The notes under the pieces: generated by a model
Databases searched by the model: none
Told to the model about the DNA's origin: nothing
The model's input: the letters and a program-made list of their open reading frames with translations, nothing else
DNA from: Candidatus Aegiribacteria sp.
Lineage (GTDB): Bacteria > Fermentibacterota > Fermentibacteria > Fermentibacterales > JCC-6
Reading direction: 5' to 3'
Assembly (NCBI GenBank): GCA_030613065.1
Contig: JAUWMQ010000002.1
Coordinates: forward strand, 18,007 to 82,006
DNA length: 64,000 bases
Translations under genes and position numbers: made by a program
Shown here: piece after piece, positions 15,127 to 44,360 of the stretch
Layout of the letters: each line of letters begins with the position of its first letter
How positions within the stretch are numbered: position 1 is the stretch's first letter

Positions 15127-15163
15127 GAATATAGCTCTTATTAGGAATGAAGGGAGACAATAA

Positions 15164-15613: not shown

Positions 15614-15620
15614 CGAGAAA

Positions 15621-16208: not shown

Positions 16209-16209
16209 G

Positions 16210-17184: not shown

Positions 17185-17192
17185 GAGACGGA

Positions 17193-17522: not shown

Positions 17523-17571
17523 CAACGAATTTAAAACCCGCTGAAAACCCGCAACACACCGGAGGCGACGG

Positions 17572-19341: not shown

Positions 19342-19353
19342 GAGGGCGGGGAC

Positions 19354-20751
19354 ATGATAAGAGAATACACTACGACGGTAGAGATATCCGGTCCTCTGAT
19401 GCTGGTAGACAGAGTCGAGGGAGTCGCCTACGAAGAACTGGTCGAGATCGAGCTTCCAAGTGGAGAGATACGCCACGGCAAGGTTCTTGAAATTGACAGC
19501 CGCATGGCTCTGGTTCAGCTCTTTGAGGGCAGCAGCGGAACAGGAATCACAGAAAGCAGGGTGCGCTTCCTCGGCAAACAGGTTGAACTGGGAGTTTCCG
19601 AGGAGATGCTTGGCAGGGTTTTTGACGGCCAGGGAAGACCAAGGGCTCCGTTCGATACTGCACCGCCAATTGTTCCCGAGAAGATGAAGAATATTAACGG
19701 AGCTCCCATTAATCCCTACGCCAGGGATTACCCCGCGGAGTTCATTCAGACTGGCTTCAGCTCAATAGACGGTATTAATACGCTTGTCAGGGGACAGAAA
19801 CTGCCGGTGTTCAGCGGAAGCGGGCTTCCTCACTCAGCCGTCGCCGCACAGATTGCAAGGCAGGCCAGAGTCGTTGGCGAGGGGGAAAGCTTTGCTGTCG
19901 TTTTCGCCGCCATGGGCATAACATTCGAAGAGGCCGATTATTTCATCAGGGATTTCAGAAAGACAGGCGCCATGGACAGGGCTGTAGTGTTCATGAACCT
20001 GGCTAGCGACCCGGCCATTGAACGTATCTCAACTCCAAGAATGGCGCTCACCGCGGCTGAGTACCTCGCATACGAAAAGGACATGCATATCCTTGTCATC
20101 CTGACGGATATGACTAATTATTGCGATGCATTAAGGGAAATATCTGCGGCAAGGAAGGAAGTACCGGGAAGAAGAGGTTATCCTGGATACCTCTACACCG
20201 ACCTTTCCTCAATTTACGAACGGGCCGGAAGGATCAAGGGCAGGAAGGGATCAATAACACAGATCCCCATTCTGACAATGCCCGAAGACGACAAGACACA
20301 TCCCATTCCAGACCTTACAGGGTACATCACGGAGGGACAGCTAATTCTCAACAGGGAACTCCATAAGAAGGGTATCTATCCCCCCATGGATGTGATGGAG
20401 TCACTCTCAAGGCTCAAAGACAAGGGTATCGGGAAAGGTAAGACCCGCGATGACCATGCGGATCTGTTCAACCAGCTGATGGCGGCCTACTCCGCTGGCA
20501 AGGACGCCAGGGAACTTGCTGTAATACTTGGTGCTGCGGCACTGAGCCCCCTTGACCAGAAGTACCTTAAATTCGCCGAAGAGTACGAGAAAAGATACAT
20601 CAGCCAGGGTGAGCACGAGAACAGGAACATAGAAGAGACTCTTGATCTTGGATGGGAGCTTCTGAAGCTTCTGCCAAGGAACGAGATGAAGAGAATAGAC
20701 CCCGGACGGCTCGACAGATACTGGCCCGTTTCGGAGGAAGAGTCCGACTGA
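19354..20751 (+). CDS. atpB: V-type ATPase subunit B
   Basis: 465 aa with a degenerate P-loop region ([19 protein letters not shown]). High similarity pattern to regulatory B subunits. Confidence 0.95.
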
Positions 20752-21389
20752 TGGCTATTGTTGTCAAAGCAACCCGAATGGAGCTGCTTCAGATGCGCAA
20801 GAAGGTAAAACTTGCGCAGAAAGGGCACAAGCTTCTCAAGGACAAGCTGGACGAACTCATGCGTCAATTCAAGATACTTATCTCGGAATACGAAGGCGCA
20901 AGGGAAGAACTGGAGAAGGAGCTCAGCGCAGCCTACGGCGAGTTCCTTTTCGCCAGGGCAGCAATGACCGAACCAGGGCTGCTTGACGCGCTTCGCTATC
21001 CCGGAGCACAGGCCATTGTTACCACTTCTACGAGGAAGATCATGAACCTTGTGCTGCCCGTCTTTGATGTCTCAATAGAGGGTAATGTACGGAATTATGG
21101 AATGTTCGACACCCCCGTTGAGCTTGATCAGTCGCTGAAGGTCTATAAGGAGCTTCTTCCCAGGATTATCAAACTGGCTGAGCACGAAAAGGCCATCAGC
21201 CTCCTGGCAAGAGAGATAGATTCGACCAGGAGGAGAGTGAACGCCCTTGAGTACAAGCTGATACCGGAGCTGGAGGAGGCGATAAGGGCTATACGTCTCA
21301 AACTGGATGAAATGGAAAGGGGAAACCTTACAAGGTTGATGAAGGTGAAGGCCATGGTGGAGGAGAAGCGCGAGAAAAGCCGCGCCTAA
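20751..21389 (+). CDS. atpD: V-type ATPase subunit D (central stalk); start taken at the ATG overlapping the atpB stop rather than the upstream ORF-track start
   Basis: [32 protein letters not shown] is the canonical subunit D N-terminus. The ORF-track start at 20652 would overlap atpB by 100 nt in another frame and is unlikely. Confidence 0.85.
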   Translation: MAIVVKATRMELLQMRKKVKLAQKGHKLLKDKLDELMRQFKILISEYEGAREELEKELSAAYGEFLFARAAMTEPGLLDALRYPGAQAIVTTSTRKIMNLVLPVFDVSIEGNVRNYGMFDTPVELDQSLKVYKELLPRIIKLAEHEKAISLLAREIDSTRRRVNALEYKLIPELEEAIRAIRLKLDEMERGNLTRLMKVKAMVEEKREKSRA

Positions 21390-23799: not shown

Positions 23800-23923
23800 A
23801 TTTGTACTCAGAAAGTATCTCCAGACGGCAATACTTCATACAATACATCTATAAATCTGGCAGATTGTGAAGAAGTGTATCGAGTTCCCCAGGTTTTTCC
23901 CGCCAGCCGGATTAACAACTAGA

Positions 23924-24209
23924 TTACTTTGTAAGGCCGTGCTGCTCAAGCTCATTTGCGGCCATATCCACCAGATCGGAAGAGGTGCATGTCCTTACCC
24001 AGCTGCAGAGGTCTCTGACACCCTGCCGGAATTCTATTTCTGCTTTGAAACCAAGAACAGCAGTTGTTCTTCTCGTATCCGCGAACCTGTGGGTCGAGGT
24101 TGTCCAGAGCTCTTACATGATAGCCTTTTTCAATAAGCAGGTCTGCGAGGTGAGAACCTATGAACCCGGCGCCACCAGTGATGACAACTCGAATGCCCAT
24201 AGTGTCCAA
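23924..24209 (-). pseudogene. Remnant of an NAD-dependent epimerase/dehydratase (GalE/WcaG-like) gene: N-terminal Rossmann motif joined out of frame to the extreme C-terminus, with the roughly 240-codon middle deleted
   Basis: Frame 1 reads [35 protein letters not shown] and then runs into nonsense. A 1-nt frame shift at DNL continues as [34 protein letters not shown]..., the conserved epimerase C-terminal segment, ending at the TAA at 23924..23926. Confidence 0.6.
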
Positions 24210-24582
24210 TTAATGCAGAAGTCGGTTTAGCAACAGTATGTATTGGGAACTTAAACACGGGATATAATCCCACCTTAATCATATTTACATTAAAGTATAA
24301 CAGATATATATGGAGTTATCAATTAACCACTGCGGTGAATTTTCGTCATTAACGCCAATCAGCCTTACCTGGCTGGCTCACTCGGGAGCTGGTCCACCCC
24401 GACCATCAATATGCAGCAGCGAGTCTGCGCTCATCAAGTCATGATGGATTCCGATTCACATCTGCAGGGGAAGCGGGTTCGAGGGGTTTGTTGTATTACT
24501 AATGACTTTGCCTGATTTTGTACTTATCATACCTGCCGTATAGAGCGTAGTTAAATACATCTGGCTGGAAGGAAGTACTGAT

Positions 24583-26343
24583 TTGCGGACAAGAGTCTTT
24601 TTACCAGCCGGTCTAATTCTTACAATTCTCTTTGTTGTGTACAGATTCATGGAACTTCTCCCGCGTGGCCCATCAGATAAGGTCGTTCAATTTATTCTGC
24701 TGGTTTCTGCAGGTGTTTGCTTTGCTCTGCATATTGCCCGAAGGACCGACCGAGATCTGATTCGGTGGATTCTGGAAAAAATAGGGAAACCCACTACCGC
24801 CAGGTTTCTCGGACTTCTTCTCGTAATTATGGCGCTTTTTTCCATATGGATGGCTTATGGACCTTTAGAGGGGATCCCGAAGGGTGGTGACGAAGCCGCA
24901 TATTATTTTCAATCAAAGATATACGCTGCCGGTCATCTTTCTGCACCAGTACCGAGTGTTGATAATCCAATGGCCTACTTTCCGTTCCGGCATTTTATCT
25001 TCAGAAATGACATGTGGTTTATTGTCTATACCCCCTTCCATTCACTATTGATGGCACCCTTCACCGCCGCTGGCGCAGCCCCTCTCCTTGGCCCCCTTGA
25101 AGGGCTGCTTTCTCTTCTGGGAATATTCCTTCTGATAAGGCTTTGGACGGGAGAAACGATAGCCCGTGTCAGCGTCATTCTTCTTCTTTTGTCACCTTTC
25201 TTCCTTTTCATGACAAGCACATTTATGGCTCACAATACGAACCTGATGCTGATGACGTGGTCACTTTACCTGATCTCCAGAAGGGCAAAGGGGGCATCGG
25301 CTGCCTACGGGCTTTCAGGAGGTTTCCTTATTGGACTTGCCTTTGCCACCAAACCTTATCCTGTTCTAGTGTGGCTATTCATCATACCTCTTGCAGTTAT
25401 AGTGGGCTGCCGGGACAGGTGGTTCCGTATTCTGGCACCGGCTGCTGCTGCCGCAGCTATACCCTTCGCGCTATTTCTGTTGTCGAACAGTTATTACACA
25501 GGAAACCCTCTTCATGCCGGATACGACCTGGTCAGGGGAGGAAAACTGATAGGCTTCGGCCCGGACAAGGCATGGTTTCCCGAATACGGAGATCACGCGC
25601 ATACCCCCCTTAGGGGACTGTTCAATGTTGCAAGGCAGATCGGGGTTGGAAGCACTATCATGTTCGGCTGGCCGTTCCTCTCCCTGTTTCCAGTGCTTGC
25701 GGCACTTGGAAGGGCGCGAAAGGAGAGACGAGTTCTCTTGCTCTATATCCCCCTGGTATTAATCATGTTGCTGATGTTTCTTCATTATTGTACTGCTATC
25801 GATTACGGGCCAAGACATTACTTCACTTTCATGCCCGTTATCATGCTTCTTTCAGCAATAGGATTAAGGGAAGTAGTAAGATACGCCAGGAAAAGAAGAG
25901 GGGTAGAAGGAAGCAATGTAGTGGCTGTCTTTGTCTTTTGTATGTTTTTGATCACTTTGTTCGTTTATTTGCCGGAGGGAATAGAACTCAGGTCGGGACC
26001 ATGGCAGAGCATTGACAACCAGCCCCGGATAACAGCTTCAAGTTCTGTCGAAACTCCCTCAATTGTATTCATGCAGGCGGGACAGTACGGATACCCGAAT
26101 ATCAGCAGCGGTATTAATTTCAATTCACCTTATCTTGACAATGAAATTATTTACTGCGCTCACCAGACACCCGGCGAGGACATTCTGTTCATGCAGGCTT
26201 ACTCCGGAAGAAACTCCTACCTTTACTGGTTTGACGGGAGCAGTTTCCATATTGAGCCATGGACACAGTATCGTTCAGAAGCCATCGCACCTACCAGGGA
26301 TATGGAATACTTTGCACATTTACATATGCTTGATTCAAGATGA
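24583..26343 (+). CDS. GT-C fold membrane glycosyltransferase (PMT/ArnT-like, GT39/GT83-type polyprenyl-phosphate-sugar-dependent transferase)
   Basis: 586 aa with more than 10 predicted TM helices. A DE-type acidic motif lies in the first periplasmic loop (GGDEAAYYFQSKIYAAGH), as in PMT/ArnT enzymes. The C-terminus is a soluble domain. Confidence 0.6.
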   Translation: MRTRVFLPAGLILTILFVVYRFMELLPRGPSDKVVQFILLVSAGVCFALHIARRTDRDLIRWILEKIGKPTTARFLGLLLVIMALFSIWMAYGPLEGIPKGGDEAAYYFQSKIYAAGHLSAPVPSVDNPMAYFPFRHFIFRNDMWFIVYTPFHSLLMAPFTAAGAAPLLGPLEGLLSLLGIFLLIRLWTGETIARVSVILLLLSPFFLFMTSTFMAHNTNLMLMTWSLYLISRRAKGASAAYGLSGGFLIGLAFATKPYPVLVWLFIIPLAVIVGCRDRWFRILAPAAAAAAIPFALFLLSNSYYTGNPLHAGYDLVRGGKLIGFGPDKAWFPEYGDHAHTPLRGLFNVARQIGVGSTIMFGWPFLSLFPVLAALGRARKERRVLLLYIPLVLIMLLMFLHYCTAIDYGPRHYFTFMPVIMLLSAIGLREVVRYARKRRGVEGSNVVAVFVFCMFLITLFVYLPEGIELRSGPWQSIDNQPRITASSSVETPSIVFMQAGQYGYPNISSGINFNSPYLDNEIIYCAHQTPGEDILFMQAYSGRNSYLYWFDGSSFHIEPWTQYRSEAIAPTRDMEYFAHLHMLDSR

Positions 26344-26581
26344 AATTACCAATAAAACCATATGCATTCTGGAATATTTCAGGAAACTGCTTTTTTGCAG
26401 CTGCGAACAACGCAAAACTGCTTATTCAGCAGATGTTCATATATGCTCATTTCTATACTAACCATATATTCCATACGTGGTTTTGCTTCAAAGAAAACTC
26501 AATATAGTGCAGTATGCAAGTACTTAAATCATAAAGCGCTATTCGCATAGTATTGAATAATAGCCATAGAATAGAGAAATA

Positions 26582-27565
26582 ATGATAACTCTTAAAAGAT
26601 TACAGAATGTTTCAAGTACTAGATTACGAAAAGTATTACATGTTGTTAAGATGTTCAATGGCCGTAGCCCGCTATATCCACGTTTTATTCAATTGTTGCT
26701 CACATATAAATGCAACTCAAATTGTCCTTTTTGTTATCAAGACGCTGAGAAAAAGAAAATTCCCGACATGAGTATCAGTGACGCTAAGATTATTGAAAGA
26801 AATATAAGAAAATCATTTAACTTCAAACCAAGAATACATTTTTTCGGAGGGGAACCTACAGTAAATACTGATTTCGTGGAAATCCTGAAATACTTTTCTA
26901 ATTCAGGTTACAAAATATCCATGACTACAAATGGAATTAATTTACTCAAATACGGGAGAGAAATTGTAGAAGCCAAGGGACTAAAGGAAATACATATTTC
27001 TCTTAATGATTTGGATTTTGAAAGAGTGTTATCAACTGTGAAGCAAATCAGCGACATTGATGTGAATAATAGTCTCCATTTAACAATAAACTGCCCGATT
27101 ACGGAGGTTAATCAAGATAGATTACTTGAAATTGTTGAGAAATTTGAACACACGGAAGCACAGTGTCTTACATTTCAACATCGCGGTTTTATTTGGTATA
27201 ATGGGTTTGTATCAATGGACCATAAATTAGTAAGACATCAGTATGACATAATTAAAAGGCGTAATAATAACATACGCATACTATTTCATCCGAGTATTAA
27301 ATCCAAGGATATCGAAGCTTACTATACGGATAAAGAATATCCCTACAATAATAACAAATGCTATTATCCATGGTTTGTCCTTTTTATACAGCCTAATGGA
27401 AGTATAATACCCTGCGATGAGCTCAATATTACAGTTGGAAATGCAGTAACTGAAAGCCTTAAGAATCTTTGGAATAATGCAGAATATGTAGCATTCAGGA
27501 AAGGGATTATTCTGAATGGAATATCACATTCAATATGCCATAGATGTGATCATAGAGATTACTAA
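26582..27565 (+). CDS. Radical SAM enzyme with C-terminal SPASM/twitch-like cysteine cluster
   Basis: CxxxCxxC motif at YKCNSNCPFCYQ and a glycine-rich SAM motif FFGGEPT. C-terminal cysteines IPCDE...HSICHRCDH resemble an auxiliary Fe-S domain. The gene is AT-rich. Confidence 0.75.
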   Translation: MITLKRLQNVSSTRLRKVLHVVKMFNGRSPLYPRFIQLLLTYKCNSNCPFCYQDAEKKKIPDMSISDAKIIERNIRKSFNFKPRIHFFGGEPTVNTDFVEILKYFSNSGYKISMTTNGINLLKYGREIVEAKGLKEIHISLNDLDFERVLSTVKQISDIDVNNSLHLTINCPITEVNQDRLLEIVEKFEHTEAQCLTFQHRGFIWYNGFVSMDHKLVRHQYDIIKRRNNNIRILFHPSIKSKDIEAYYTDKEYPYNNNKCYYPWFVLFIQPNGSIIPCDELNITVGNAVTESLKNLWNNAEYVAFRKGIILNGISHSICHRCDHRDY

Positions 27566-27579
27566 ATAGGAGCTGACAC

Positions 27580-28728
27580 ATGATTACAATCGTGATACCG
27601 GCATTGAACGAAGAAAATACCGTTGGTATTTGCGTCAAAAAGGCTATAGAGACTATGCGTAATCTTAATGTAGAGGGAGAAGTCATAGTCGCCGATAATG
27701 GATCCACCGACAAAACAGAGGAGGTAGCACTTAAGGCAGGCGCAAGAGTTATTAAGACGGAAGAGAAGGGTTATGGAGCTACTTACAGGCAGAGCATACC
27801 GCACGCCCAGGGAGAGTTCATTATAATGGGAGATGCTGATGATTCGTACAATTTTGAAGAAATTGGCCCATTTATTGAAAAATTGAATCAGGGATATGAG
27901 TTCGTGATGGGAAACAGATTCAAGGGTAAAATAGAAAAGGGGGCTATGCCATTATTGCATCGTTACATAGGGACTCCTATACTAACCGCAATTATGAATC
28001 TATTTTTCAAGATTGGGATTAGCGACACAAACTGTGGCATGAGGGCATTTACAAAGAACGCATTTGAGAAAATGAAATTGAAAACCTCTGGTATGGAATT
28101 TGCTACAGAAATGATAATAAAAGCTTCCGCTGTCGGACTGAAAATGTGTGAAATTCCTTGTAATCTTTACAGAGACAAAAGGGATCATCCACCACACCTG
28201 AACACCTGGAAAGATGGATGGAGATATCTCAGGTTCATGTTATTGTTTACTCCCTTTTGGACGTATCTTGTTCCAGGATTAACCTTGATGTCCATTGGGA
28301 TACTGGGAATGATCACTCTTTTCGTAAGGGATTGTACGTCACCACTATTCCTCGGTAATATAATAGAGCCAAAATACTTCTCACTGCTTCTTCTGCCACT
28401 GTTAGTGGGAAGTCAGATAGTATCTTTTGGTATTATTGCTTGTAGTCTTAGTTATGCAAAACACTACAATAATATTAATAAAAGGATATATAGTTTATTA
28501 GGAAAATTCAAACTTGAAAATGGTCTACTTACAAGCCTGCTTCTTTTATGCACTGGCGGCTTGATTATTACTTATCTGATTGTTTCTAATTACTGGGGAG
28601 TAGGTCCAATTATTGGGGATGCAGTTAGAAATGACTTGAGTGTTATAGCGACCGCGCTGATTGTTTTTAGCACGCAAATATTTTGTACATCATTTATACT
28701 TAGTATAGATATTCTAAAGGTTATTTAG
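27580..28728 (+). CDS. GT2 polyprenyl-phosphate sugar synthase-like glycosyltransferase (DPM1/ArnC/GtrB type) with C-terminal membrane anchor
   Basis: ITIVIPALNEE, VADNGSTDKT and IMGDADDSY (DxD) form the GT2 catalytic core. The last roughly 150 aa have 4 predicted TM helices, as in GtrB/ArnC. Confidence 0.8.
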   Translation: MITIVIPALNEENTVGICVKKAIETMRNLNVEGEVIVADNGSTDKTEEVALKAGARVIKTEEKGYGATYRQSIPHAQGEFIIMGDADDSYNFEEIGPFIEKLNQGYEFVMGNRFKGKIEKGAMPLLHRYIGTPILTAIMNLFFKIGISDTNCGMRAFTKNAFEKMKLKTSGMEFATEMIIKASAVGLKMCEIPCNLYRDKRDHPPHLNTWKDGWRYLRFMLLFTPFWTYLVPGLTLMSIGILGMITLFVRDCTSPLFLGNIIEPKYFSLLLLPLLVGSQIVSFGIIACSLSYAKHYNNINKRIYSLLGKFKLENGLLTSLLLLCTGGLIITYLIVSNYWGVGPIIGDAVRNDLSVIATALIVFSTQIFCTSFILSIDILKVI

Positions 28729-28768
28729 CGTTGCATTTTGCATTATTATATAGAGATAGAATGTTATT

Positions 28769-29503
28769 ATGAAAGAATCACGCGTTGCGTTTTATAAGAG
28801 ATGGGGAACACACTCAAAACCATATTTTGAGTGGCAATCGGAGCAAATATCAAAATATGTTGGTAAAAGAATAGCGGATATAGGTTGCGGATTAGGAAAT
28901 TTTGTAGAAGTATTTAGTGACAAAGAACTCTATTTAGGATTTGATCCAGACGAATCGGTTCGACAGGAAATACAGAGATCGGAGTATCCCGATAATTTCA
29001 GATTATCAAAAAAGGGTGATATCTGTCAGGCGGAAACAGTAGAAGAGATTAATGTAAATGACATAGATACAATTATATGCATAAATACCTTAGAGCATAT
29101 TAAAGATGACAAACAAGCACTGACTAATATGGTCAAGGCAGTTAAAAAGGATGGTCATGTATGCTTAATTGTTCCTGCTTTACATTGCCTTTATGGTTCG
29201 CTGGACGAATTTGATGGTCACTATAGAAGATATTCAAAAAAGGACTTATTAGTACTCACAGATAATTTGGAAGTGGAAATAGTTCTATTACGTTATATGA
29301 ACATGATTGGAAGCGTAGGATGGTTTATCAAGAGCAGAATTGTAAAAGAAAAAACATATAAGAACACGAATTTCAATATTATAGTAAGTCTTCTCCCGAT
29401 AATATCTTTTTTAGAAAAATATATAAAACCTATATTTGGTCTTTCACTTGTTCTGGTGCTGCGAAAGCGTAATAGTTTACGTCCCTTTACATCAGTGAAA
29501 TAA
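28769..29503 (+). CDS. Class I SAM-dependent methyltransferase
   Basis: Motif I IADIGCGLGNF and the acidic motif II region LGFDPDE. The 244-aa length fits the family. Confidence 0.7.
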   Translation: MKESRVAFYKRWGTHSKPYFEWQSEQISKYVGKRIADIGCGLGNFVEVFSDKELYLGFDPDESVRQEIQRSEYPDNFRLSKKGDICQAETVEEINVNDIDTIICINTLEHIKDDKQALTNMVKAVKKDGHVCLIVPALHCLYGSLDEFDGHYRRYSKKDLLVLTDNLEVEIVLLRYMNMIGSVGWFIKSRIVKEKTYKNTNFNIIVSLLPIISFLEKYIKPIFGLSLVLVLRKRNSLRPFTSVK

Positions 29504-29513
29504 GTCATAGAAT
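29486..29513 (+). promoter_or_regulatory. Putative sigma70-type promoter for the riboswitch-leader transcript (TTTACA-16-TAGAAT)
   Basis: A -35 TTTACA (29486..29491) and a -10 TAGAAT (29508..29513) with a 16-nt spacer lie about 25 nt upstream of the first GEMM aptamer. Confidence 0.3.
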
Positions 29514-29539
29514 ATTATTAGGCGGTAGAGCACCGCTAA

Positions 29540-29620
29540 GCAAACCGGAGGAAACTCCGGGACGCAAAGCCACGGATCCCAGCCGCTTCAGGGGAAAGCG
29601 GAAGGATAGCCGGGTTACCG
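29540..29620 (+). ncRNA. c-di-GMP-I (GEMM) riboswitch aptamer, copy 1 of a tandem pair
   Basis: GCAAACC-GGAGGAAACUCC-GGGACGCAAAGCCACGG...GGAUAGCCGGGUUACCG matches the GEMM-I hallmarks. These are the 5' CAAAC, a P1 hairpin with a GAAA tetraloop, GACGCAAAGCC, and the 3' AGCCGGGUUACCG. Compare V. cholerae Vc2 GGGCAAACC...GGGACGCAAAGCCUCCGG...GGUAGCGGGGUUACCG. Confidence 0.8.
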
Positions 29621-29631
29621 TTTGACTCAAT

Positions 29632-29708
29632 GCAAACCGGAGGAGACTCCGGGACGCAAAGCCACGGATCCCAGCCCGGGAAACCGGGAAGGACAGCCGG
29701 GTTACCAG
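29632..29708 (+). ncRNA. c-di-GMP-I (GEMM) riboswitch aptamer, copy 2 of the tandem pair
   Basis: GCAAACCGGAGGAGACUCCGGGACGCAAAGCCACGGAUCCCAGCCCGGGAAACCGGGAAGGACAGCCGGGUUACCA. It shares conserved cores with copy 1 but has a different P2 hairpin (CCCGGGAAACCGGG), so it is a diverged duplicate rather than a recent repeat. Confidence 0.8.
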
Positions 29709-29756
29709 ACGTCTGCCCGAGGGGGAACTCCCGAGCAGGTTGAGGAGGTGCTCAGG

Positions 29757-30029
29757 ATGAGGTTGATACCAATAATACTGGTAGCGCTTCTGCCGTCGGT
29801 AATGCTAGCCGGCGTAACCGTATCCTCCTGCACTGCTGATGTTGACAGTTTTATCAGCATCGCCAGAGAGGCAATGGAGGATGGTAACTACGTTACCGCG
29901 TTTGCTCTGTATGAATGCGCTCTCCGAAGAGAACCCCACTCTTCAGAAGCTCTCGCAGGCTGTCTTATGGCCAGGGCTTTTATGGTGGAGTGTTGTTCTG
30001 CAACGCAGATTCAGGTTACTTTACGCTGA
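29757..30029 (+). CDS. Small secreted/lipo-protein (90 aa) downstream of the tandem c-di-GMP riboswitches; helical TPR-like mature region
   Basis: Strong SD GAGGAGG at 29741..29747, then an ATG at 29757. Signal peptide MRLIPIILVALLPSVMLAGVTVSSC. The ORF-track N-terminal extension from 29622 is the riboswitch itself. Confidence 0.5.
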   Translation: MRLIPIILVALLPSVMLAGVTVSSCTADVDSFISIAREAMEDGNYVTAFALYECALRREPHSSEALAGCLMARAFMVECCSATQIQVTLR

Positions 30030-30051
30030 CGGTGGCATTCCGCTGGTGCCG

Positions 30052-30075
30052 GGGACGGGCCTTGAGGCCCGTCCC
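30052..30075. terminator. Bidirectional stem-loop between the convergent small protein gene and serS
   Basis: Perfect 10-bp stem GGGACGGGCC-TTGA-GGCCCGTCCC located between the two stop codons. There is no strong U-tract on either side. Confidence 0.45.
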
Positions 30076-30084
30076 GCCTTTGAA

Positions 30085-31375: not shown

Positions 31376-31720
31376 TCAGAAATGGGGTATGAATACCAGC
31401 AGGCCTACGGCTAGAGCAGCAGCAGCAGCAAGGAGAACGGAACCTGCCGCGAGGTCTTTCGCTTTCTGAACCGAATCGTGCCACTCCGGCGCGGTATGGT
31501 CTGCCAGGAATTCAAGAGCGCTGTTCATTGCTTCCGCGGATAGAACCATTCCGACTGCAAGGGCAATAAGAGTCCACTCCCCCAGGTTAAGGCTCACAAG
31601 TAATCCTAGAGCAATAACAAAAACAAGCGCGAAAAGATGGATTCTTGCATTCATCTGGGTCGCCAGAAGTGTACCTATCCCTCTGAAAGCGTATCTGAAA
31701 CTTCTGAGTCTATTTTTCAT
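31376..31720 (-). CDS. dgkA: Diacylglycerol kinase (prokaryotic DgkA family) / undecaprenol kinase-like
   Basis: MKNRLRSFRYAFRGIGTLLATQMNARIHLFALVFVIALG...EAMNSALEFLADH matches the DgkA signature. The start was chosen at the ATG abutting the upstream PAP2 stop, not the longer ORF-track start. Confidence 0.8.
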   Translation of the reverse strand: MKNRLRSFRYAFRGIGTLLATQMNARIHLFALVFVIALGLLVSLNLGEWTLIALAVGMVLSAEAMNSALEFLADHTAPEWHDSVQKAKDLAAGSVLLAAAAALAVGLLVFIPHF

Positions 31721-31721
31721 A

Positions 31722-32468
31722 TCAGAAACATACTCCAAATCCTCCGGGACTGCTCCATCTGATTCCCAGGGTTGGGTAAATCTGCTGGCTGGAAGACGCA
31801 CCATCTTCATGTGCCGCCGCGACCGCAAGCCCCACGGATATTCCAATAGCTGCCCCGGCAATTACATCCGAAGGATAGTGCTTTCCAATAATGACTCGCG
31901 AAAGCATTGTAAATGTTGCTACTGCTGCAGCGGGGATGCCTGCACCGGGGCCGTAACTGTCCCATAGAATAACAGCCGCGCAGGCTGTACCGGAAGAATG
32001 TCCCGAAGGGAAACTGTGACTGCCGCTTAAGTCCGGTCGCGTTCTGCCCGACGCGAGTTTCATCACGCCGGTGAGGCCGTAGGTCAGAAGGAGACCCTCA
32101 GTAAGCATCTGACCGGTATCTTCGACACCGGGGGAATCCGTGAGAGAACCTGCTGCCCATGTTAAAGAAGAAGCTCCTAAAAGTGTCAGGCCGAAGGCTT
32201 TGTCGCAAACCATCGACATATCCCTCAGACACCCCTCACTCACGCAGCCATCTTTGCTTTCAAGCATGAAAGCCCCGGCTGTAACTGCCCCGCCGAGGCC
32301 GATAACCGCCAGCGGCTCGCTAGCGAACATGTGGTGGATGTCCTCCCCGATGAAATGGAAGAAATCATCGCCTGTAACCTCTGAGATCAGAAAAAAGGTT
32401 AATGTCAGGAGAATCAGACCTCGCGGCCGCCTAACCTTTCTCGGCATAGAAAGCCTTGATGGTTTCAA
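31722..32468 (-). CDS. PAP2-family membrane phosphatase (undecaprenyl-diphosphatase-like)
   Basis: PAP2 motifs: KLASGRTRP (KxxxxxxRP), SFPSGHS (PSGH) and a C-terminal SRVIIGKHYPSDV (SRxxxxxHxxxD). Confidence 0.8.
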   Translation of the reverse strand: MKPSRLSMPRKVRRPRGLILLTLTFFLISEVTGDDFFHFIGEDIHHMFASEPLAVIGLGGAVTAGAFMLESKDGCVSEGCLRDMSMVCDKAFGLTLLGASSLTWAAGSLTDSPGVEDTGQMLTEGLLLTYGLTGVMKLASGRTRPDLSGSHSFPSGHSSGTACAAVILWDSYGPGAGIPAAAVATFTMLSRVIIGKHYPSDVIAGAAIGISVGLAVAAAHEDGASSSQQIYPTLGIRWSSPGGFGVCF

Positions 32469-33594
32469 CTACTTCAACAAGCTCTTCTTCCGTAAGCTCT
32501 CCGAAAACCGGGATGGACAGAACTTCCTTTGAAACTGTTTCAGAGACAGGAAAATCACCCTCTCCGTAACCAAGACAATCAAAGCATTTCTGAAGATGTA
32601 GGGGCATCGGATAGTAAACCGCACACCCGATACCATGTTCCCGAAGGTAATTAAGAAGTTCGTCCCGGTCAGATGCCTTGGCCTTAATAGTATACTGGTT
32701 GTATACGGACCACGCATTCTTCCTTATCACAGGAGTGGTGACCTGTTTAACCCCCTTTAATGCTTTGCTGTAGAAACTGGCGTTCTTTCGTCGTCCATCG
32801 TGCCAGCTTTCAAGATGTGCCAGTTTAACCCTGAGAAATCCGGCCTGAATGGCATCGAGGCGCGAATTGAAACCCACTTCTTCATGGATATAGCCCCTGC
32901 CGCCATGCTCTCTCAGGCTGACTATCGTGTCAGCAATCTCCGGCGAGTCAGTAGTGACCATGCCTCCGTCACCCAGGGCTCCGAGGTTCTTGGACGGGAA
33001 GAAACTGAAACAGCCCGCCGCACCGATGGAACCCGCCCTCTTCTGCGACCACTTCGCTCCCACTGCCTGGCAGGCGTCCTCAACAACTGGAATCTGCCAG
33101 TCATTGCAGATAGACATGATTCTATCCATATCAGCCAGCTGTCCGAACAGATGAACGGGCATCACTGCACCGATCCTTGAACCATTGCTTCTTTCAACAA
33201 CGCCCCTGTTTGTAACGACGCAGTTATCAGTCAGCCATTTGGATAGAAGCTCCGGATCGATGTTGAATGTATCGGGAAGAATATCCAGGAACAGAGGGAT
33301 ACCACCTGCCCTCACTATTGCTCCCGCTGAGGCGAAAAAGGTGAAAGGGGTGGTCAGAACAACATCTCCAGGTTTAACACCGACAGCCATGAGAGCGAGG
33401 ATAAGAGCATCTGTACCGGAAGCACATCCGATCGCTCTGTCAGTACCGCAGTACTCAGCAAATTCTTTCTCCAGCTGCTCCATTTCTGGACCCTTTATAA
33501 ACAGTGATGTTTCAAGAGCAGTGTTGAAAACGTAGCGGAGATCTTCGAGTATCGGCTGATGCTGTCTGTTGATATCGAGTAGAGGAACTGCCAT
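32431..33594 (-). CDS. DegT/DnrJ/EryC1/StrS-family PLP-dependent sugar aminotransferase
   Basis: 387 aa containing CASGTDALILAL, the lysine region FSFFPSKNLGALGDGG (PLP-binding K) and an overall DegT pattern. Confidence 0.9.
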   Translation of the reverse strand: MAVPLLDINRQHQPILEDLRYVFNTALETSLFIKGPEMEQLEKEFAEYCGTDRAIGCASGTDALILALMAVGVKPGDVVLTTPFTFFASAGAIVRAGGIPLFLDILPDTFNIDPELLSKWLTDNCVVTNRGVVERSNGSRIGAVMPVHLFGQLADMDRIMSICNDWQIPVVEDACQAVGAKWSQKRAGSIGAAGCFSFFPSKNLGALGDGGMVTTDSPEIADTIVSLREHGGRGYIHEEVGFNSRLDAIQAGFLRVKLAHLESWHDGRRKNASFYSKALKGVKQVTTPVIRKNAWSVYNQYTIKAKASDRDELLNYLREHGIGCAVYYPMPLHLQKCFDCLGYGEGDFPVSETVSKEVLSIPVFGELTEEELVEVVETIKAFYAEKG

Positions 33595-33615
33595 TTAGTT
33601 TTCCTTTCAAATAAT

Positions 33616-34953
33616 CTAATGAGCCCCGGCGCCAGTCAGGACAACCTTCAGTGTGCGGGCAAGAATCTCGAGATCAAGGAATATCGACTGGTTTTCGATA
33701 TAGTAGAAATCGTACCTTAATTTATTCGCTACACTTTCCATATTTACATCATACTCAAGTTTAACCTGAGCCCATCCCGTCAGACCCGGTTTGATAGTGA
33801 GTCTTTTCTGATAGAAGGGGAACATCTTCCTGAGCTCATCAACAAATACTGGCCGCTCCGGTCTTGGACCTACAATAGACATCTCGCCCTTAAGCACATT
33901 TATCAGCTGGGGTGTCTCGTCGATGCGGGATTTTCTGAGGTGTTTTCCAAGGCGTGTTACCCTGGAATCATTCTTACCTGCCCAGACAGGCCCACTTCTC
34001 TTTTCCGCGTCGTTTACCATGCTTCTGAACTTGAATACCTTGAAGATCTTCCCCCCTTTACCAACCCTTTTCTGGCGATAGAAGACAGGACCCTTTGAGT
34101 CGAGCTTGATCAGCACTGCCAGAAGCAGCCATACAGGAAGGCCTGCCAGGAGAACAAAAAAGCTGATGAAGTAATCAATGAACACTTTCACGATCTTCTG
34201 CCAGAAAGTCAACCGCTCTGGAAGTATTTCCATGAAAGGCTGTCCCATTATCTGGGTACTGTGAACATGGCCGGTTACAATATCAAACAGATCCGGAACC
34301 ACTTTTACCCTGATTCCCTCTCCCGCGGCGGGAAGGAGAAGGGAAAGAATATCGTTATGGAAATTCGATGCAATCGTGACAAGCAGTTCCCTTACTGAGA
34401 ATTCCTTTATTATTCCGGGCAGGTCCTTCACTGTGCAAAGGATTCTATCCTCAGGTACTGTCCTCAAAGAGTCAATCTTACAAGGGTCTACAAAACCCAC
34501 CATATCATAACCCAATGCTCTGTTTTCACGGAGGTAACGTTCGAGGCTGGAAGCTGCTTCTCCAGTTCCGACGATTGCTGCCCGGCGGACAAGGAGACCC
34601 TTTTTGGCGAACATTCTTTCCAGAATTCGCATACAGCCCCGAGCAATAAAGACAAAAAGAAGAAGAGCTGCATAATAGAATACTATTACCCATCTGCCAA
34701 TAGAAGCTGAAGGTGATACAAGGAAAGCACCAAAAAACAGTATTATGAAGCCGGAAGTAACTGGCTTCACCACAAGTTTCAATTCGTCCGCCCAGCTCAT
34801 GTCCCAGTGCAGTCTGTAGGAACCTGATACCCCAAAAATCAGCCACCAGAAAGGTACCGACAGCAATGCCCCTGAGAATGTGACGCTGTTTGAAATAGAG
34901 ACAGCGTCTGCAAAAAAGCCCGAATCGAATTTGATCCATGATGAAAAGCACAT
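33616..34953 (-). CDS. Polyprenyl-phosphate hexose-1-phosphate transferase (WbaP/PglC bacterial sugar transferase family), the initiating enzyme
   Basis: The C-terminal catalytic domain PVFYRQKRVGKGGKIFKVFKFRSM...DETPQLINVLKGEMSIVGPRPERP is diagnostic. The N-terminal has TM helices and a CoA-binding-like region. Confidence 0.85.
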   Translation of the reverse strand: MCFSSWIKFDSGFFADAVSISNSVTFSGALLSVPFWWLIFGVSGSYRLHWDMSWADELKLVVKPVTSGFIILFFGAFLVSPSASIGRWVIVFYYAALLLFVFIARGCMRILERMFAKKGLLVRRAAIVGTGEAASSLERYLRENRALGYDMVGFVDPCKIDSLRTVPEDRILCTVKDLPGIIKEFSVRELLVTIASNFHNDILSLLLPAAGEGIRVKVVPDLFDIVTGHVHSTQIMGQPFMEILPERLTFWQKIVKVFIDYFISFFVLLAGLPVWLLLAVLIKLDSKGPVFYRQKRVGKGGKIFKVFKFRSMVNDAEKRSGPVWAGKNDSRVTRLGKHLRKSRIDETPQLINVLKGEMSIVGPRPERPVFVDELRKMFPFYQKRLTIKPGLTGWAQVKLEYDVNMESVANKLRYDFYYIENQSIFLDLEILARTLKVVLTGAGAH

Positions 34954-35009
34954 AGCCAGAAATACTGCTACCCCATCGAATATTATACCCAGAATAAGAC
35001 TTTTGTTCT

Positions 35010-36140
35010 TCAGTTCTTTCTGCCTTCCGACTTCTTCTCCCAGGTTTCTACCGGATTTCCTAACCGTAATATACCATTAACAGACGCGATACTCATAAGC
35101 CAGAAATAATAGGGAAAAAGAAGCTTTGAAGGCAAATACCGTTTCAACAGCAATCCTGCCGCGGCTGTTGCATGGAAGAGGCACATCAGGATGAAGAGAA
35201 TCAGATAGAATAGCCCATCAGAAAGAAACCCGGCAAGAACGGTAGCTGAAGCAAAAAGAAGACCAGAAAACCACCTGAGAAATTTGTGCACAAGGAGCTG
35301 CAGAAAGAGCAGGAAATTTCTCTTCTTCAGGGCTTTTCCCATGAGTAATGCACCGCTTATGAACATCCAGCTTACTATCCTCACCAATCTATGGTACTGC
35401 TTCGAATCGTCTGGAGAGGGTTCTACGGCTACTGCATTTCCGTTAAATACACATGAAAAGCCCTGTATCCTTGTCATTACAGACAGTTCGAAATCATCCG
35501 CTCTTCTTGAGGACAACGGCATGAAAAGTCCTCTCCTTAATGCAAACACAGCTCCCGTGGCCCCAAGAACTGCTCCAAAATATGAACACAATTTCTTAAT
35601 CGTTGTCTCGTACTTCCAGTAGATACTTTCGCATGTATCCGCATTCAGGCTGTTCCTGCGGGAGCCGTCAACGCAACCTACGGACGGGTCCGAGAAAGGA
35701 GTGACAAGTTCTCTGACGGTGGAAGGGGCGAAAACAGTATCAGCATCCGAAAAAACGAGGATATCTCCATTCGACAGTTCCAGCAGTTTCTTTATCATCA
35801 GGGGTTTTCCGATACGCTCCCCGCTTCGATGCACTATCACTCCCTGATCTCTGAAAGCTCCTGCTATAGCATCCGTTTCGTCATCCGAACCGTCTGAACC
35901 AATAAGGATTTCGATTGAACCGCCGTAATTCTGTTCAAGGAGGTTAAGAATTCTTGAGGCAATCACACTCTCTTCATTCCTTGCCGCTATCAGTACACTG
36001 ACAGAAGGCCACTCTTCCGGCTCTTTCCACGAAGAGGAATATTTCCTGAAAAACATGGAGACACTGATGAGAACCGATGGATAGATGAGCCAGGGAGAAA
36101 GAAACAAACCCAGTACAATCCAGAAGGGGAGAGTATTCAT
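35010..36140 (-). CDS. GT2 glycosyltransferase with C-terminal TM helices
   Basis: PSVSVLIAARNEE, GSDGSDDET and VFSDADTVF form the DxD/GT2 core. Confidence 0.75.
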   Translation of the reverse strand: MNTLPFWIVLGLFLSPWLIYPSVLISVSMFFRKYSSSWKEPEEWPSVSVLIAARNEESVIASRILNLLEQNYGGSIEILIGSDGSDDETDAIAGAFRDQGVIVHRSGERIGKPLMIKKLLELSNGDILVFSDADTVFAPSTVRELVTPFSDPSVGCVDGSRRNSLNADTCESIYWKYETTIKKLCSYFGAVLGATGAVFALRRGLFMPLSSRRADDFELSVMTRIQGFSCVFNGNAVAVEPSPDDSKQYHRLVRIVSWMFISGALLMGKALKKRNFLLFLQLLVHKFLRWFSGLLFASATVLAGFLSDGLFYLILFILMCLFHATAAAGLLLKRYLPSKLLFPYYFWLMSIASVNGILRLGNPVETWEKKSEGRKN

Positions 36141-37663: not shown

Positions 37664-38700
37664 GAATAGTTGCCAGCCCTATCGAGAGCCTTTCGGGAAA
37701 GCTCTCTTCTGAGTTCAGGCTGAGAAGTGAGCATGGCCATTCCTCGCATTATATCCTCAACTGATTCAGGATTCACAAGAATGCCCGCGTCACCGACCAG
37801 TTCCTCAAGAGCTGTTCCAGCGGAAGCCACAACAGGAGAACCGGCAGCCATGGCTTCAAGGGCTGGAAGGCCGAAACCCTCCTTCAGTGACGGAATCACC
37901 AGGCCTGCACAGGAGCGGTACAGTTTTCTCAGTTCATCGTCTGTAACATGGGATAGAACCGTAATACTGTCCGTTGCGGAGCAGTCCTCTATATCGCGCA
38001 TGAAATCACGGAAGGCCCTGTCCCTGCGGACGACCATTTTCATTCCGGGGAAACGGGGATTGATAGCTTTCAGTCTTGCGTAAGCGACGATAAGCCTTGT
38101 AACGTTCTTGTAGGCCCTGGCGTTTCCTACATAGAGAAGGTAATCCTGTCTTTCGCCCACCCATTTTTCATCACGGGAGAACAGGTCCTGACCAGCTCCT
38201 GCAATAAATGCTTTCGTTTCTGCTCCGGGGAAAGTTTTGCGCAGATCACTGAGAGATGCCTCCGAAGGAACAGATATTGAGCGGGCGTGATCGATCGATC
38301 TCCTGATTCTTCTCCCGAACAGTAATCTTTCGAGGATATTTCTGAAGAAACTGCTTCCAAAATATCCAGGTACGTTCAGTACCATAAGGTCATGAACCGA
38401 CAGAAGCGTTGGAATGGATGGTGATGGCCCAGCCATTGATAAGTTCAGATAACAGTCGGCTCCGGAAGATTCAATGAGAGGAACAAGTTCGCTGTTCTCC
38501 GTCTTGCGTAATCTCGCCGCACTGCATAGGACAGGTTCCACGGGCAGGCTTTGAACATACGGCACTTCTTCCGGATTAACGATAACGGAGAGCTTCCAGT
38601 TCGGTTTAAGCTCGGAGAGGGCTCTTATCACCCCCAGGGAATACCTGCTTATACTATCATGCGGTATCCTGAGGGCTCTGGCGTCCAGTATAAGTCTCAT
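37609..38700 (-). CDS. GT1/GT4 glycosyltransferase
   Basis: C-terminal EX7E region IPSLKEGFGLPALEAMAAGSPVVAS. Confidence 0.8.
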   Translation of the reverse strand: MRLILDARALRIPHDSISRYSLGVIRALSELKPNWKLSVIVNPEEVPYVQSLPVEPVLCSAARLRKTENSELVPLIESSGADCYLNLSMAGPSPSIPTLLSVHDLMVLNVPGYFGSSFFRNILERLLFGRRIRRSIDHARSISVPSEASLSDLRKTFPGAETKAFIAGAGQDLFSRDEKWVGERQDYLLYVGNARAYKNVTRLIVAYARLKAINPRFPGMKMVVRRDRAFRDFMRDIEDCSATDSITVLSHVTDDELRKLYRSCAGLVIPSLKEGFGLPALEAMAAGSPVVASAGTALEELVGDAGILVNPESVEDIMRGMAMLTSQPELRRELSRKALDRAGNYSWERTASAIADRIGAITS

Positions 38701-40221: not shown

Positions 40222-40232
40222 AAATACAGCAG

Positions 40233-41432: not shown

Positions 41433-41518
41433 TCTTATCCTTCCCGCTACAGTTTCGGAACGCTTGCACAGCTTCTGGTATTATATATTCCATTATAAAT
41501 TAAGACGATTCAGGCTTT

Positions 41519-44320: not shown

Positions 44321-44360
44321 CTTTTTCTGAACGGATGACATCAAGGATAATCTTTGATCT

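Follow-up and report, generated by a model that had tools for sequence, protein, structure and literature searches.

The Gtr system of Shigella, Salmonella and their phages consists of a flippase (GtrA), a bactoprenol-phosphate glucose synthase of glycosyltransferase family 2 (GT2; GtrB) and a GT-C-type transferase (GtrC), and serotype-converting gtr cassettes change the sugar decoration. Glycosylation from lipid-linked monosaccharide donors (Gtr, Arn, Emb/Aft and pentofuranose systems) is a major source of surface-antigen diversity. To our knowledge, the donor-editing enzymes described so far are SDR or flavin epimerases. Among radical S-adenosylmethionine (SAM) enzymes, BtrN is a 2-deoxy-scyllo-inosamine dehydrogenase and BlsE a cytosylglucuronate decarboxylase. 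In three-component systems, the lipid-linked donor is the substrate of auxiliary epimerases, namely ORF13 and DprE1/DprE2 (Kelly et al. 2024, PMC11127046). The pentofuranose systems include ORF12-15 of Citrobacter youngae O1/O2 and mycobacterial DprE1/DprE2 with the Emb/Aft GT-C enzymes; variant serotype loci keep remnants of the auxiliary epimerase gene, and radical SAM enzymes are nowhere mentioned in that paper (PMC11127046). Here we describe a locus in a 64-kb stretch of Fermentibacterota DNA (Candidatus Aegiribacteria sp.), the whole of which we call the window. In it, an AT-rich cassette encoding a radical SAM enzyme, a GT2 and a methyltransferase lies directly beside a GT-C glycosyltransferase.

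We read the cassette as a horizontally exchanged module for donor synthesis and tailoring that serves the resident GT-C at a variable surface-glycan locus, and we give this reading a probability of about 0.62. The break in composition, the breakpoints of the replacement, the presence or absence of the cassette among relatives, the incongruent phylogenies, the family and fold assignments of the proteins and the recurrence of the radical SAM-GT2 pair across phyla are direct observations, and the proposed pathway builds on them.

A low-GC cassette replaces the default genes beside GT-C

Thirty-two loci from relatives (L093-L124) were compared, 30 of them from a metagenome scan together with L093 and L094. 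In 22 of the 32, a default 230-aa GT2, GT2(230), immediately follows GT-C. Two show the AT-rich cassette, which is additionally present in L014/L013 and in the window. In its fullest order the default set has host GC content and reads epimerase (minus strand), B12-binding radical SAM, GT2(336), GT-C, GT2(230), GT2(368) (minus strand) and two B12-binding radical SAM genes, followed by a riboswitch-controlled small open reading frame (ORF) and serS (minus strand). The GT-C of the default-type loci L095/L096 is 82% identical to that of the window at the amino acid level. Homology to L095, L096 and L098 ends at about 26329-26337 and resumes at 29482-29510 (blastn). The left breakpoint, 26329, lies 14 nt before the GT-C stop codon, and the right one, 29482, falls at the -35 element of the riboswitch promoter. 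Between them the window holds 3152 bp of AT-rich DNA, as against 4988 bp in L096 encoding GT2(230), GT2(368) and two B12-binding radical SAM enzymes. About 5 kb of default genes have given way to the cassette, which did not enter empty DNA. A preliminary description of this DNA had drawn an island at 26344-29520, 15-40 nt from the homology breakpoints.

That description had also reported a shift to AT-rich composition relative to the flanks, and sliding GC, GC at third codon positions (GC3) and codon usage all bear it out. In the sliding profile, GC drops from ~0.48-0.55 to 0.32-0.40 between about 26250 and 29500 and is back to 0.55 within one step. The replacement segment, with a GC content of 0.350, is poorer in GC than any other stretch of the 64 kb; the remainder of the window has 0.475 (z = -5.6 relative to 1091 other windows of 3152 bp, the minimum of which is 0.407). 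The ten lowest 1-kb GC windows of the 64 kb all start at 26101-28501, inside or overlapping the segment. GC3 is 0.287 for the radical SAM gene, 0.368 for the GT2 gene and 0.278 for the methyltransferase gene (z = -4.0, -2.4 and -4.2), against 0.491 +/- 0.051 for 42 other genes, and the first and second codon positions of the three genes (GC1 and GC2) are lowered as well. Codon usage, as relative synonymous codon usage distance, gives z-scores of 3.0, 1.7 and 4.7 in the same order, and the GT-C gene is host-like in composition (GC 0.479, GC3 0.484). Elsewhere in the window, the second-lowest GC stretch is at 500-1900 (about 0.387-0.389 per 1 kb), and one gene has a GC3 of 0.326.

Both the default set and the cassette appear to supply a synthase-type GT2 and radical SAM chemistry beside the same GT-C, since the top NCBIfam matches of the default GT2(230) are those of the window GT2 (AglJ, Dol-P-hexose transferase, PgfS and PpgS). 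After the loss of GT2(230), the cassette GT2 is the only donor-synthase-type gene beside GT-C. The default locus (L093-L122, for example L094 5567-14789), with GT-C, three GT2 and up to three B12-binding radical SAM genes, is found widely across the phylum; its B12-binding radical SAM proteins match BchE, HpnJ and P-methyltransferases best, all below threshold.

The left side of the locus carries traces of a second loss. A minus-strand ORF at 23952-24209 matches Pfam Epimerase (1.9e-08) over profile positions 1-36 only, after which the frame is broken. In syntenic relatives, an intact epimerase of 373 aa occupies this position on the same strand (blastn: L094 5247-5354, L096 558-694). The partial Pfam match, the frame break and the blastn matches to intact relatives support the earlier suggestion that an epimerase remnant marks past rearrangement here. 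Homology to L095/L096 resumes only at 24438, and relatives hold a B12-binding radical SAM gene and GT2(336) between the epimerase and GT-C. Because these two genes are missing beside the remnant, we take the remnant as the scar of losing the upstream half of the default set.

The wider synteny of L094 is that of the window (V-ATPase D, DJ-1/ElbB, a 223-aa protein, and beyond the locus serS, DAGK and PAP2), with a PHP gene lost in the window. In relatives this PHP-domain gene lies between the 223-aa gene and the epimerase/GT-C genes; the window lacks it (23800-24580, against L094 3412-7998 and L014 95-934). L014 appears to keep a 279-aa ORF at the PHP-gene position, without an epimerase remnant. 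The left side thus seems to have been remodelled differently in the window and L014, the two closest cassette-bearing genomes. L014 also has about 2.1 kb of extra DNA (6630-8800) between the small riboswitch-controlled ORF and serS, with two minus-strand ORFs of 226 and 424 aa.

Table 1 Features of the cassette locus, in window coordinates.
Feature	Position	Strand	Basis or remark
Epimerase/dehydratase (NAD-dependent sugar) remnant	23923..24209	-	C-terminal piece 23923-24059, N-terminal piece 24083-24209; internal deletion and frameshift
Left deletion scar	24191..24437	.	About 250 bp, against about 2.4 kb (B12-binding radical SAM and 336-aa GT2) in relatives
GT-C glycosyltransferase (GT39/PMT_2-like, ArnT-like), 586 aa	24583..26343	+	PMT_2, fold, transmembrane topology
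AT-rich replacement segment	26330..29481	.	3152 bp, bounded by homology breakpoints to default-type close relatives (blastn, L095/L096/L098)
AT-rich spacer, GC 0.33	26344..26581	+	Upstream of the cassette genes
Radical SAM enzyme with twitch-type (truncated SPASM) C-terminal domain, 327 aa	26582..27565	+	PF04055, PF13186
GT2, polyprenyl-phosphate-sugar-synthase-like, 382 aa	27580..28728	+	PF00535, PF26629, four transmembrane segments
Class I SAM-dependent methyltransferase with hydrophobic C-terminal stretch, 244 aa	28769..29503	+	Pfam
Right junction	29482..29513	+	Host-type DNA resumes; promoter-like TTTACA-16-TAGAAT overlaps the last methyltransferase codons
Tandem c-di-GMP-I riboswitches	29529-29622 and 29623-29709	+	68 and 64 bits

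The cassette moves independently of GT-C

The nearest species-representative genome is a Candidatus Fermentibacteria metagenome-assembled genome (L014), whose radical SAM protein is 80% identical to that of the window; further named relatives are Aegiribacteria, Fermentibacteraceae and Sabulitectum. A second copy, L013 (JAUXBI010000036.1), is labelled Syntrophaceae. The E-values of all four genes are nearly identical between L013 and L014, which share the riboswitch as well, so we suspect the label and regard it as probably a binning error. On a neighbour-joining tree of GT-C, cassette-bearing loci fall into three separate clades, each beside default-type loci. Between L016 and L017, GT-C is 48% identical, but the radical SAM enzyme is 71% and the GT2 79% identical. 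Since cassette identity here exceeds GT-C identity and the GT-C clades are split, the three genes appear to travel as a unit independently of GT-C, and the disagreement between cassette and GT-C phylogenies points to horizontal movement. In L002/L017 (Fermentibacteraceae, host GC about 0.58), the cassette sits at the same site but inverted, again with low GC (0.39-0.45, against 0.57-0.62). In L012/L016, which represent one further genome, GT-C and cassette lie together in an unrelated genomic context.

The acquisition does not appear to be recent. The window and L014 are collinear over 24492-30078, with identities of 0.77-0.87 within the cassette genes and, for the most part, 0.7-0.83 in the flanking DNA. 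This collinearity, with cassette and flanks similarly diverged, indicates that the replacement predates the split between the window and L014, and thus from a relative whose DNA is about 80% identical. L002 is more distant: its cassette proteins are 61-67% and its flanking proteins 59-71% identical to those of the window, with V-ATPase subunits D and B at 80% and 92%. A recent acquisition private to the window genome was ruled out by the collinearity and the equal divergence with L014 and L002.

The locus thus combines deviant composition, presence or absence among relatives and gene-tree incongruence, the marks of a horizontally acquired island. Horizontal acquisition had been proposed in the preliminary description from composition; presence and absence in relatives, sharp breakpoints and incongruence now speak for it too. 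The exchange probably proceeded by homologous recombination within the conserved flanks. Inverted or direct repeats on either side were considered as a cause of inversion or insertion and rejected, as only short, chance-level matches were found. In the window, repeats of at least 30 nt are limited to the riboswitch duplication and one 72%-identical pair within the GT2 gene; the island is flanked by neither. About 6 kb downstream of the cassette, L012 (18561-18631) and L016 (18648-18718) carry a group II intron (RF00029, with an RVT_1/GIIM ORF), which is the only mobile-element signature seen near any cassette copy.

The radical SAM enzyme has a twitch-type C-terminal domain

The radical SAM protein scores 60.9 bits against PF04055 (cut-off 29.5) and 49.8 bits against PF13186 (SPASM), both above the gathering score. 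Its CX3CX2C motif (C44-X3-C48-X2-C51) is invariant in 19 sequences. In the C-terminal domain, C260, C278, C319 and C322 are invariant, and C323 is found in most members, with Asp in its place in the window's clade. These residues form the pattern C260-X12-G-X4-C278 followed by C319-X2-C322, and the protein ends at residue 327. A further invariant Cys, C171, is on a barrel strand, and Q199-H200, Y247-Y248, R321 and H324-R325 are also invariant. Despite the PF13186 match, the seven-cysteine SPASM motif (CX9-15GX4C...CX2CX5CX3C...C) is absent from the protein. The spacing of the four invariant Cys is like that in BtrN, whose twitch region aligns to residues 257-323, and the NCBIfam twitch model matches the same region. 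Since the domain has only four or five Cys, its sequence indicates a BtrN-like twitch, with room for one auxiliary cluster, rather than a SPASM domain. Of the "SPASM/twitch-like" Cys cluster first proposed, the radical SAM assignment and the PF13186 match stand; a full two-cluster SPASM domain does not, and is replaced by the twitch type.

The AlphaFold2 model (pLDDT 85.6, pTM 0.88) has alternating strand-helix elements in a partial (beta/alpha)6 TIM barrel, with no extra N-terminal domain. Foldseek gave 87 PDB matches at E<=0.001, and all 50 among the matches listed are radical SAM enzymes. BlsE (7vob, TM-score 0.68/0.68), a sugar-nucleoside decarboxylase, gives the best reciprocal match in structure, followed by SuiB, DesII, PqqE, BtrN, anSME, AbmM and viperin. 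The closest structures therefore include several sugar- or nucleotide-modifying enzymes (BlsE, DesII, BtrN, AbmM and viperin).

The family is rare and scattered. Searches returned 23 homologues among 5.8 billion clustered proteins and, among 1.84 billion representatives, 273 clusters (50% identity) at E<=1e-30 and about 14 at E<1e-60. About 17 species of 185,579 representatives carry the enzyme at 33% identity or more, and they are spread over Fermentibacteria, Saganbacteria, Acidobacteriota, Omnitrophota, Gammaproteobacteria, candidate phyla radiation (CPR) bacteria and one archaeon. No curated family covers the protein, and its NCBIfam scores are all far below the cut-offs. In distant relatives from Gammaproteobacteria and Portnoybacteria (L028 9968-15628, L029, L030, L027), up to six SPASM/twitch radical SAM paralogues stand in tandem with a homologue at the head, usually close to a short GT2. 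Some representatives have two to four radical SAM domains in one polypeptide of up to 1324 aa.

Three other identities were considered and rejected. A prokaryotic viperin or defence role does not fit, as PADLOC pVip covers only profile positions 2-104 of 257 (the radical SAM core) and the NCBIfam viperin model scores 51.6 bits against a cut-off of 180. A phage-borne seroconversion module does not fit either: 2.9 million viral contigs held no family member, only core-only matches at 33% identity or less. Lastly, a Rosetta-stone fusion of the radical SAM enzyme with the GT2 was looked for among its long relatives (P0219, P0226, P0250, P0283 and the L026 ORF), which never contain GT2; they are radical SAM-radical SAM tandem fusions, or radical SAM proteins with an undetected N-terminal part.

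The GT2 and the methyltransferase

The GT2 scores 91.6 bits against PF00535 (Glycos_transf_2), above the gathering score, and carries PF26629 (GT2_TM_C) in precomputed annotation. In its GT-A domain, D85-A-D87 aligns with the DAD of Pyrococcus furiosus DPMS, and its C-terminal transmembrane (TM) segments span residues 231-249, 269-287, 317-335 and 355-373. Archaeal DPMS has four TM helices and GtrB two. The top PDB sequence matches are P. furiosus DPMS (5mlz), ArnC and GtrB (5ekp). The NCBIfam scores (cut-offs in brackets) are 130.3 bits for AglJ (325), 92.8 for Dol-P-hexose transferase (375), 71.8 for PpgS (370) and 39.5 for ArnC (529). The protein thus falls in none of the characterised NCBIfam equivalogs, and we assign no sugar specificity. 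By sequence it belongs to the polyprenyl-phosphate-sugar-synthase type; profile searches, PDB matches and TM segments agree with the earlier description of a DPM1/ArnC/GtrB-type GT2 with a membrane tail. The GT2-TM family is large, with at least 7976 members at E<=1e-30.

The methyltransferase matches Methyltransf_23, 12, 11, 25 and 31, all above gathering scores. Three co-directional genes ending in a class I methyltransferase, as first described, are thus what the ORFs and Pfam give. Orthologues follow the GT2 in L013-L017 and L012. The methyltransferase is found only in Fermentibacterota cassettes and is missing from the radical SAM-GT2 pairs of other phyla.

The inverted orientation in L017/L099 requires a promoter of the cassette's own, presumably in the spacer upstream of its genes (26344-26581), where no sigma-70-like site passed the promoter scan. 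A 62-aa ORF in the spacer (26362-26550) was considered as a precursor peptide or gene and rejected: it is cut short in L014, and L015, L016 and L017 lack it. The preliminary description had already called it unconvincing as a precursor, which its lack of conservation confirms.

The resident GT-C glycosyltransferase

GT-C scores 39.4 bits against PF13231 (PMT_2; gathering score 26.1) and has about 11 TM helices and a C-terminal soluble domain. It has an acidic DE motif in the first extracytoplasmic loop: the motif G101-G-D103-E104 follows the third hydrophobic segment, and D103 and E104 are invariant in 30 homologues. The top PDB matches of its AlphaFold2 model (pLDDT 85.3) by Foldseek are ArnT (5f15/5ezm), AglB, ALG12 and PglB, and all 27 structural matches at E<=0.001 are GT-C enzymes, with ArnT leading. 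The TM-score with ArnT is 0.47-0.55 at 14-15% identity, and there is no PDB sequence match at E<=1. Pfam, the fold and the invariant D103-E104 agree on the GT-C assignment with a DE loop motif that had been made from sequence. At least 129 homologues (45-86% identity) were found; "glycosyltransferase family 39 protein" is a name given to homologues by their sources, and every source-named match is from Fermentibacteria, Aegiribacteria or Sabulitectum. GT-C adjoins the cassette, but it is a lineage-wide resident gene and not a cassette member.

The radical SAM-GT2 pair recurs in other phyla

Across several phyla, the radical SAM gene lies beside a polyprenyl-phosphate-sugar-synthase-like GT2 gene. 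Among ten distinct loci with a radical SAM protein of at least 47% identity, the GT2 is directly adjacent in nine; in L004/L018 one gene lies between. The two genes occur in either order, sometimes overlapping by one base, and several members at 25-43% identity also have a GT2 adjoining or within about 2 kb. A polytopic membrane protein is usually found beside the pair. It is PMT_2-like in L007 and L011, reaches 25.9 bits for PMT_2 in L004, close to the cut-off of 26.1, and has no Pfam match and 7-8 TM segments in L008 and L010.

The radical SAM enzyme also has relatives outside this arrangement. L021, which has no adjoining GT2 of this type, has WbqC, formyltransferase and methyltransferase genes nearby; in L024 a GT2 lies one gene from the radical SAM gene, together with a second radical SAM gene and AsnB. 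Conversely, a 53%-identical GT2 directly precedes a 525-aa, 8-TM protein without any radical SAM gene. The GT2-TM family is far larger than the radical SAM family and occurs with a membrane partner but without the radical SAM enzyme, which suggests that the latter is an optional auxiliary enzyme.

A possible donor-tailoring pathway

In the pathway proposed here, we infer the substrates, the order of steps, the functional link to GT-C and the acceptor. Family membership and the conserved neighbourhood suggest the underlying logic, in which the GT2 would make the donor and GT-C would transfer it. The GT2 would move a sugar from a nucleotide sugar to polyprenyl phosphate at the cytoplasmic face. 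The twitch radical SAM enzyme would abstract a hydrogen atom from the sugar, either on the lipid-linked form or on the nucleotide precursor. Its edit would be redox or stereochemical, most likely epimerisation or oxidation to a keto sugar, with decarboxylation or deoxygenation as alternatives. The methyltransferase would then methylate the sugar, a flippase would flip the product, and the ArnT-like GT-C would move the tailored sugar to an envelope acceptor, most plausibly the glycan of the adjacent 19-kb cluster, or lipid A/core.

We think that the substrate of the radical SAM enzyme is probably a sugar, and we favour C-H activation of that sugar (epimerisation or oxidation) followed by methylation, although any one specific reaction is doubtful. 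The invariant C171, which lies outside the clusters, could be the hydrogen-atom donor of an epimerase. A tentative extension, which we consider somewhat unlikely as it stands, is that the whole radical SAM family edits polyprenyl-phosphate-linked monosaccharides, as an oxygen-independent counterpart of DprE1/DprE2 or an SDR epimerase, giving a rare, then methylated, donor for a periplasmic GT-C. It is further conceivable that the cassette substitutes, independently of cobalamin, for the default set with its up to three B12-dependent radical SAM enzymes. If so, cassette switching would alter both the surface antigen and the cofactor dependence of the cell.

Alternative explanations

Several observations count against a donor module serving GT-C. 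No GtrA, SMR or MATE-type flippase and no small four-TM ORF was found in or near the cassette, and the nearest MOP/MurJ-family protein (44361-46031) is about 15 kb away. The membrane partners in other phyla are not detectably homologous to GT-C, and most have no Pfam match, so that the generalisation to a "GT-C partner" is one of topology. The top Foldseek match of the radical SAM enzyme by E-value is the peptide-modifying SuiB, and its best PDB sequence match is the lipid-modifying GDGT-MAS, across the generic core only. The GT-C tree was built by neighbour joining and carries no support values. Nothing at the locus accounts for the movement of the cassette: neither a mobility gene nor a flanking repeat was seen, and the window contains no tRNA. 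All relatives are metagenome-derived, and the proteins are known here from their genes.

The GDGT-MAS match raises the question of whether the substrate of the radical SAM enzyme is a lipid (the polyprenyl carrier or the tail of a membrane lipid), so that the product would be a modified glycolipid and not a sugar donor. GDGT-MAS (7tol, 1.1e-14) forms C-C bonds in archaeal lipids, the NCBIfam tetraether lipid synthase Tes also matches (1.3e-12), the GT2 is embedded in the membrane and a hydrophobic tail is present in the methyltransferase. The likeness is limited, however, to residues 39-143, which make up the generic radical SAM core, 7tol matches only weakly in structure (TM-score 0.45/0.31, against 0.68/0.68 for BlsE), the NCBIfam scores are all far under their cut-offs, and the relatives in L021 and L024 are still found amid sugar-tailoring genes. 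We regard a lipid substrate as quite unlikely. Maturation of a ribosomal peptide, glycocin- or sactipeptide-like, would fit the fact that SPASM radical SAM enzymes are typical maturases of this kind, with SuiB, CteB and SkfB among the structural matches, and that a 62-aa ORF lies directly upstream. That ORF is not conserved, though, and the radical SAM model lacks an N-terminal RRE-type domain and has four or five C-terminal Cys only; a protease and a transporter are both missing, the GT2 belongs to the membrane-embedded polyprenyl-phosphate type, and the conserved neighbours are all glycan genes. Taken together, these points make a peptide product extremely improbable.

The cassette might instead be independent of GT-C, in a slot that is merely permissive for recombination, with the GT2 product used by another transferase or forming an end-product glycolipid. 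GT-C is resident and far more widespread than the cassette, which is found in either orientation, as would be expected. Yet the cassette abuts GT-C in every Fermentibacterota locus with both flanks visible, including L012/L016, where the surroundings differ. A polytopic membrane protein adjoins the radical SAM-GT2 pair in other phyla too, and GT-C would be left with the cassette GT2 as its sole donor-synthase-type neighbour; independence is therefore unlikely. Finally, the low GC could reflect gene-specific constraint under vertical inheritance, as is often said of surface-polysaccharide genes. Cassette and flanks have diverged about equally between the window, L014 and L002, the cassette is AT-rich in hosts of GC 0.48 and 0.58, and the radical SAM gene is the lowest-GC gene of its neighbourhood, or among the lowest, in most loci examined. 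Against vertical inheritance are the sharp breakpoints with close relatives that hold another gene set, the polyphyly of the cassette on the GT-C tree, the L016-L017 incongruence (48% against 71-79%), the patchy distribution of the radical SAM enzyme across phyla, including an archaeon and CPR bacteria, and the shift in GC1 and GC2 as well. We consider it very improbable. Exchange of a donor-tailoring module beside a fixed GT-C is the reading we prefer.

The riboswitch unit and surrounding clusters

At the downstream end of the cassette, a promoter-like site (29486-29513) precedes the tandem riboswitches. They are followed by a 90-aa ORF (29757-30029) with a ribosome-binding site (GAGGAGG), a lipoprotein-like signal peptide (…LAGVTVSSC) and a weak TPR match, which ends at a GC-rich hairpin shared convergently with serS. 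The unit of riboswitches and 90-aa ORF is kept beside serS in L013/L014, L095, L096, L098 and L122, and is thus independent of which cassette is present. Riboswitch control of the cassette was considered and rejected, since the riboswitch is downstream, faces a separate small ORF and is present in default-type relatives too.

A 19-kb envelope-glycan cluster (31376-50414) borders the locus and is the likely source of the GT-C acceptor. It encodes DAGK, PAP2, a DegT aminotransferase, a Bac_transf phosphoglycosyl transferase, a GT2, a B12-binding radical SAM protein (36140-37663), a GT4, a heptosyltransferase-like GT9, a GT4, a GT2, Wzy_C, a MurJ/MOP-family protein, two GT4 and two GT2. Upstream is a V-type ATPase operon (13099-21389; subunits I, A, B and D). 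Its ORFs for B (19354-20751) and D (20652-21389) overlap by 100 nt as called, so that subunit D probably begins at a point further downstream.

Implications

Most relatives hold a different set at the same site, so a cassette swap would be expected to change the sugar decoration. The locus suggests that anaerobes recruit radical SAM enzymes for donor editing, with two classes in two alternative cassettes, and that whole donor-tailoring modules are swapped beside a fixed GT-C. For radical SAM enzymology, it offers a small, well-delimited family with a strong substrate hint from its polyprenyl-phosphate-sugar-synthase-type neighbour; for glycobiology, cassette-type surface variation in the uncultured phylum Fermentibacterota. 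Should the sugar-donor reading be wrong, what remains is an ordinary variable polysaccharide locus. In open-access PMC and bioRxiv, we found no literature linking radical SAM enzymes to GT-C, polyprenyl or undecaprenyl glycosylation, no radical SAM and GtrB together among the matches listed, and no paper with both Fermentibacteria and glycosyltransferase.

Comparison with known systems

Pentofuranose glycosylation is the closest conceptual precedent, in that a lipid-linked monosaccharide is edited by an auxiliary enzyme before GT-C transfer. There the donor synthase is a phosphoribosyltransferase that uses phosphoribosyl pyrophosphate, whereas here it would be a GT2, and the editors are an SDR or a flavoenzyme/SDR pair, whereas here a radical SAM enzyme would take that part. 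The Arn pathway, in which ArnC (a GT2) and ArnT (a GT-C) serve the modification of lipid A with aminoarabinose, is similar in that ArnT is the best structural match of GT-C, ArnC ranks among the top matches of the GT2 in both the PDB and NCBIfam, and tailoring precedes transfer. The resemblance is distant: GT-C is 14-15% identical to ArnT with a TM-score of about 0.5, the GT2 reaches 39.5 bits of the 529 required for ArnC, and there are no ArnA/B/D/E/F equivalents at the cassette locus.

Like BtrN, BlsE and DesII, the radical SAM enzyme is of similar size and combines a partial TIM barrel with a short C-terminal Fe-S domain. Its C260-X17-C278-X40-C319-X2-C322 arrangement resembles what we take to be the four auxiliary-cluster Cys of BtrN. 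It differs from these enzymes in sequence (12-16% identity in Foldseek alignments), in the invariant residues of its own family, and in having a membrane GT2 as genomic partner rather than an antibiotic pathway. The default Fermentibacterota cassette has the same GT-C in the same slot, the same short-GT2 family matches and radical SAM enzymes of its own; it differs in its cobalamin-binding radical SAM class, its additional glycosyltransferases and its host-like GC, with one to three further radical SAM genes, mostly of the B12 type.

On our analysis, the best reading would be that the cassette follows the logic of Gtr-like periplasmic glycosylation, into which a rare twitch-type radical SAM enzyme has been recruited. 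The synthase, flippase and GT-C of the three-component Gtr type do not occur together at the locus, as it lacks a GtrA-like flippase; a radical SAM enzyme and a methyltransferase are added, and there is no phage association. The cassette GT2 has four TM helices like archaeal DPMS, unlike GtrB. As in Gtr, a synthase-type GT2 is paired with a GT-C, and a low-GC, exchanged module would alter a surface glycan (for the Gtr side, compare PMC11127046). Unlike in Gtr, the GT-C is here the conserved resident, and it is the donor-synthesis genes that are swapped.

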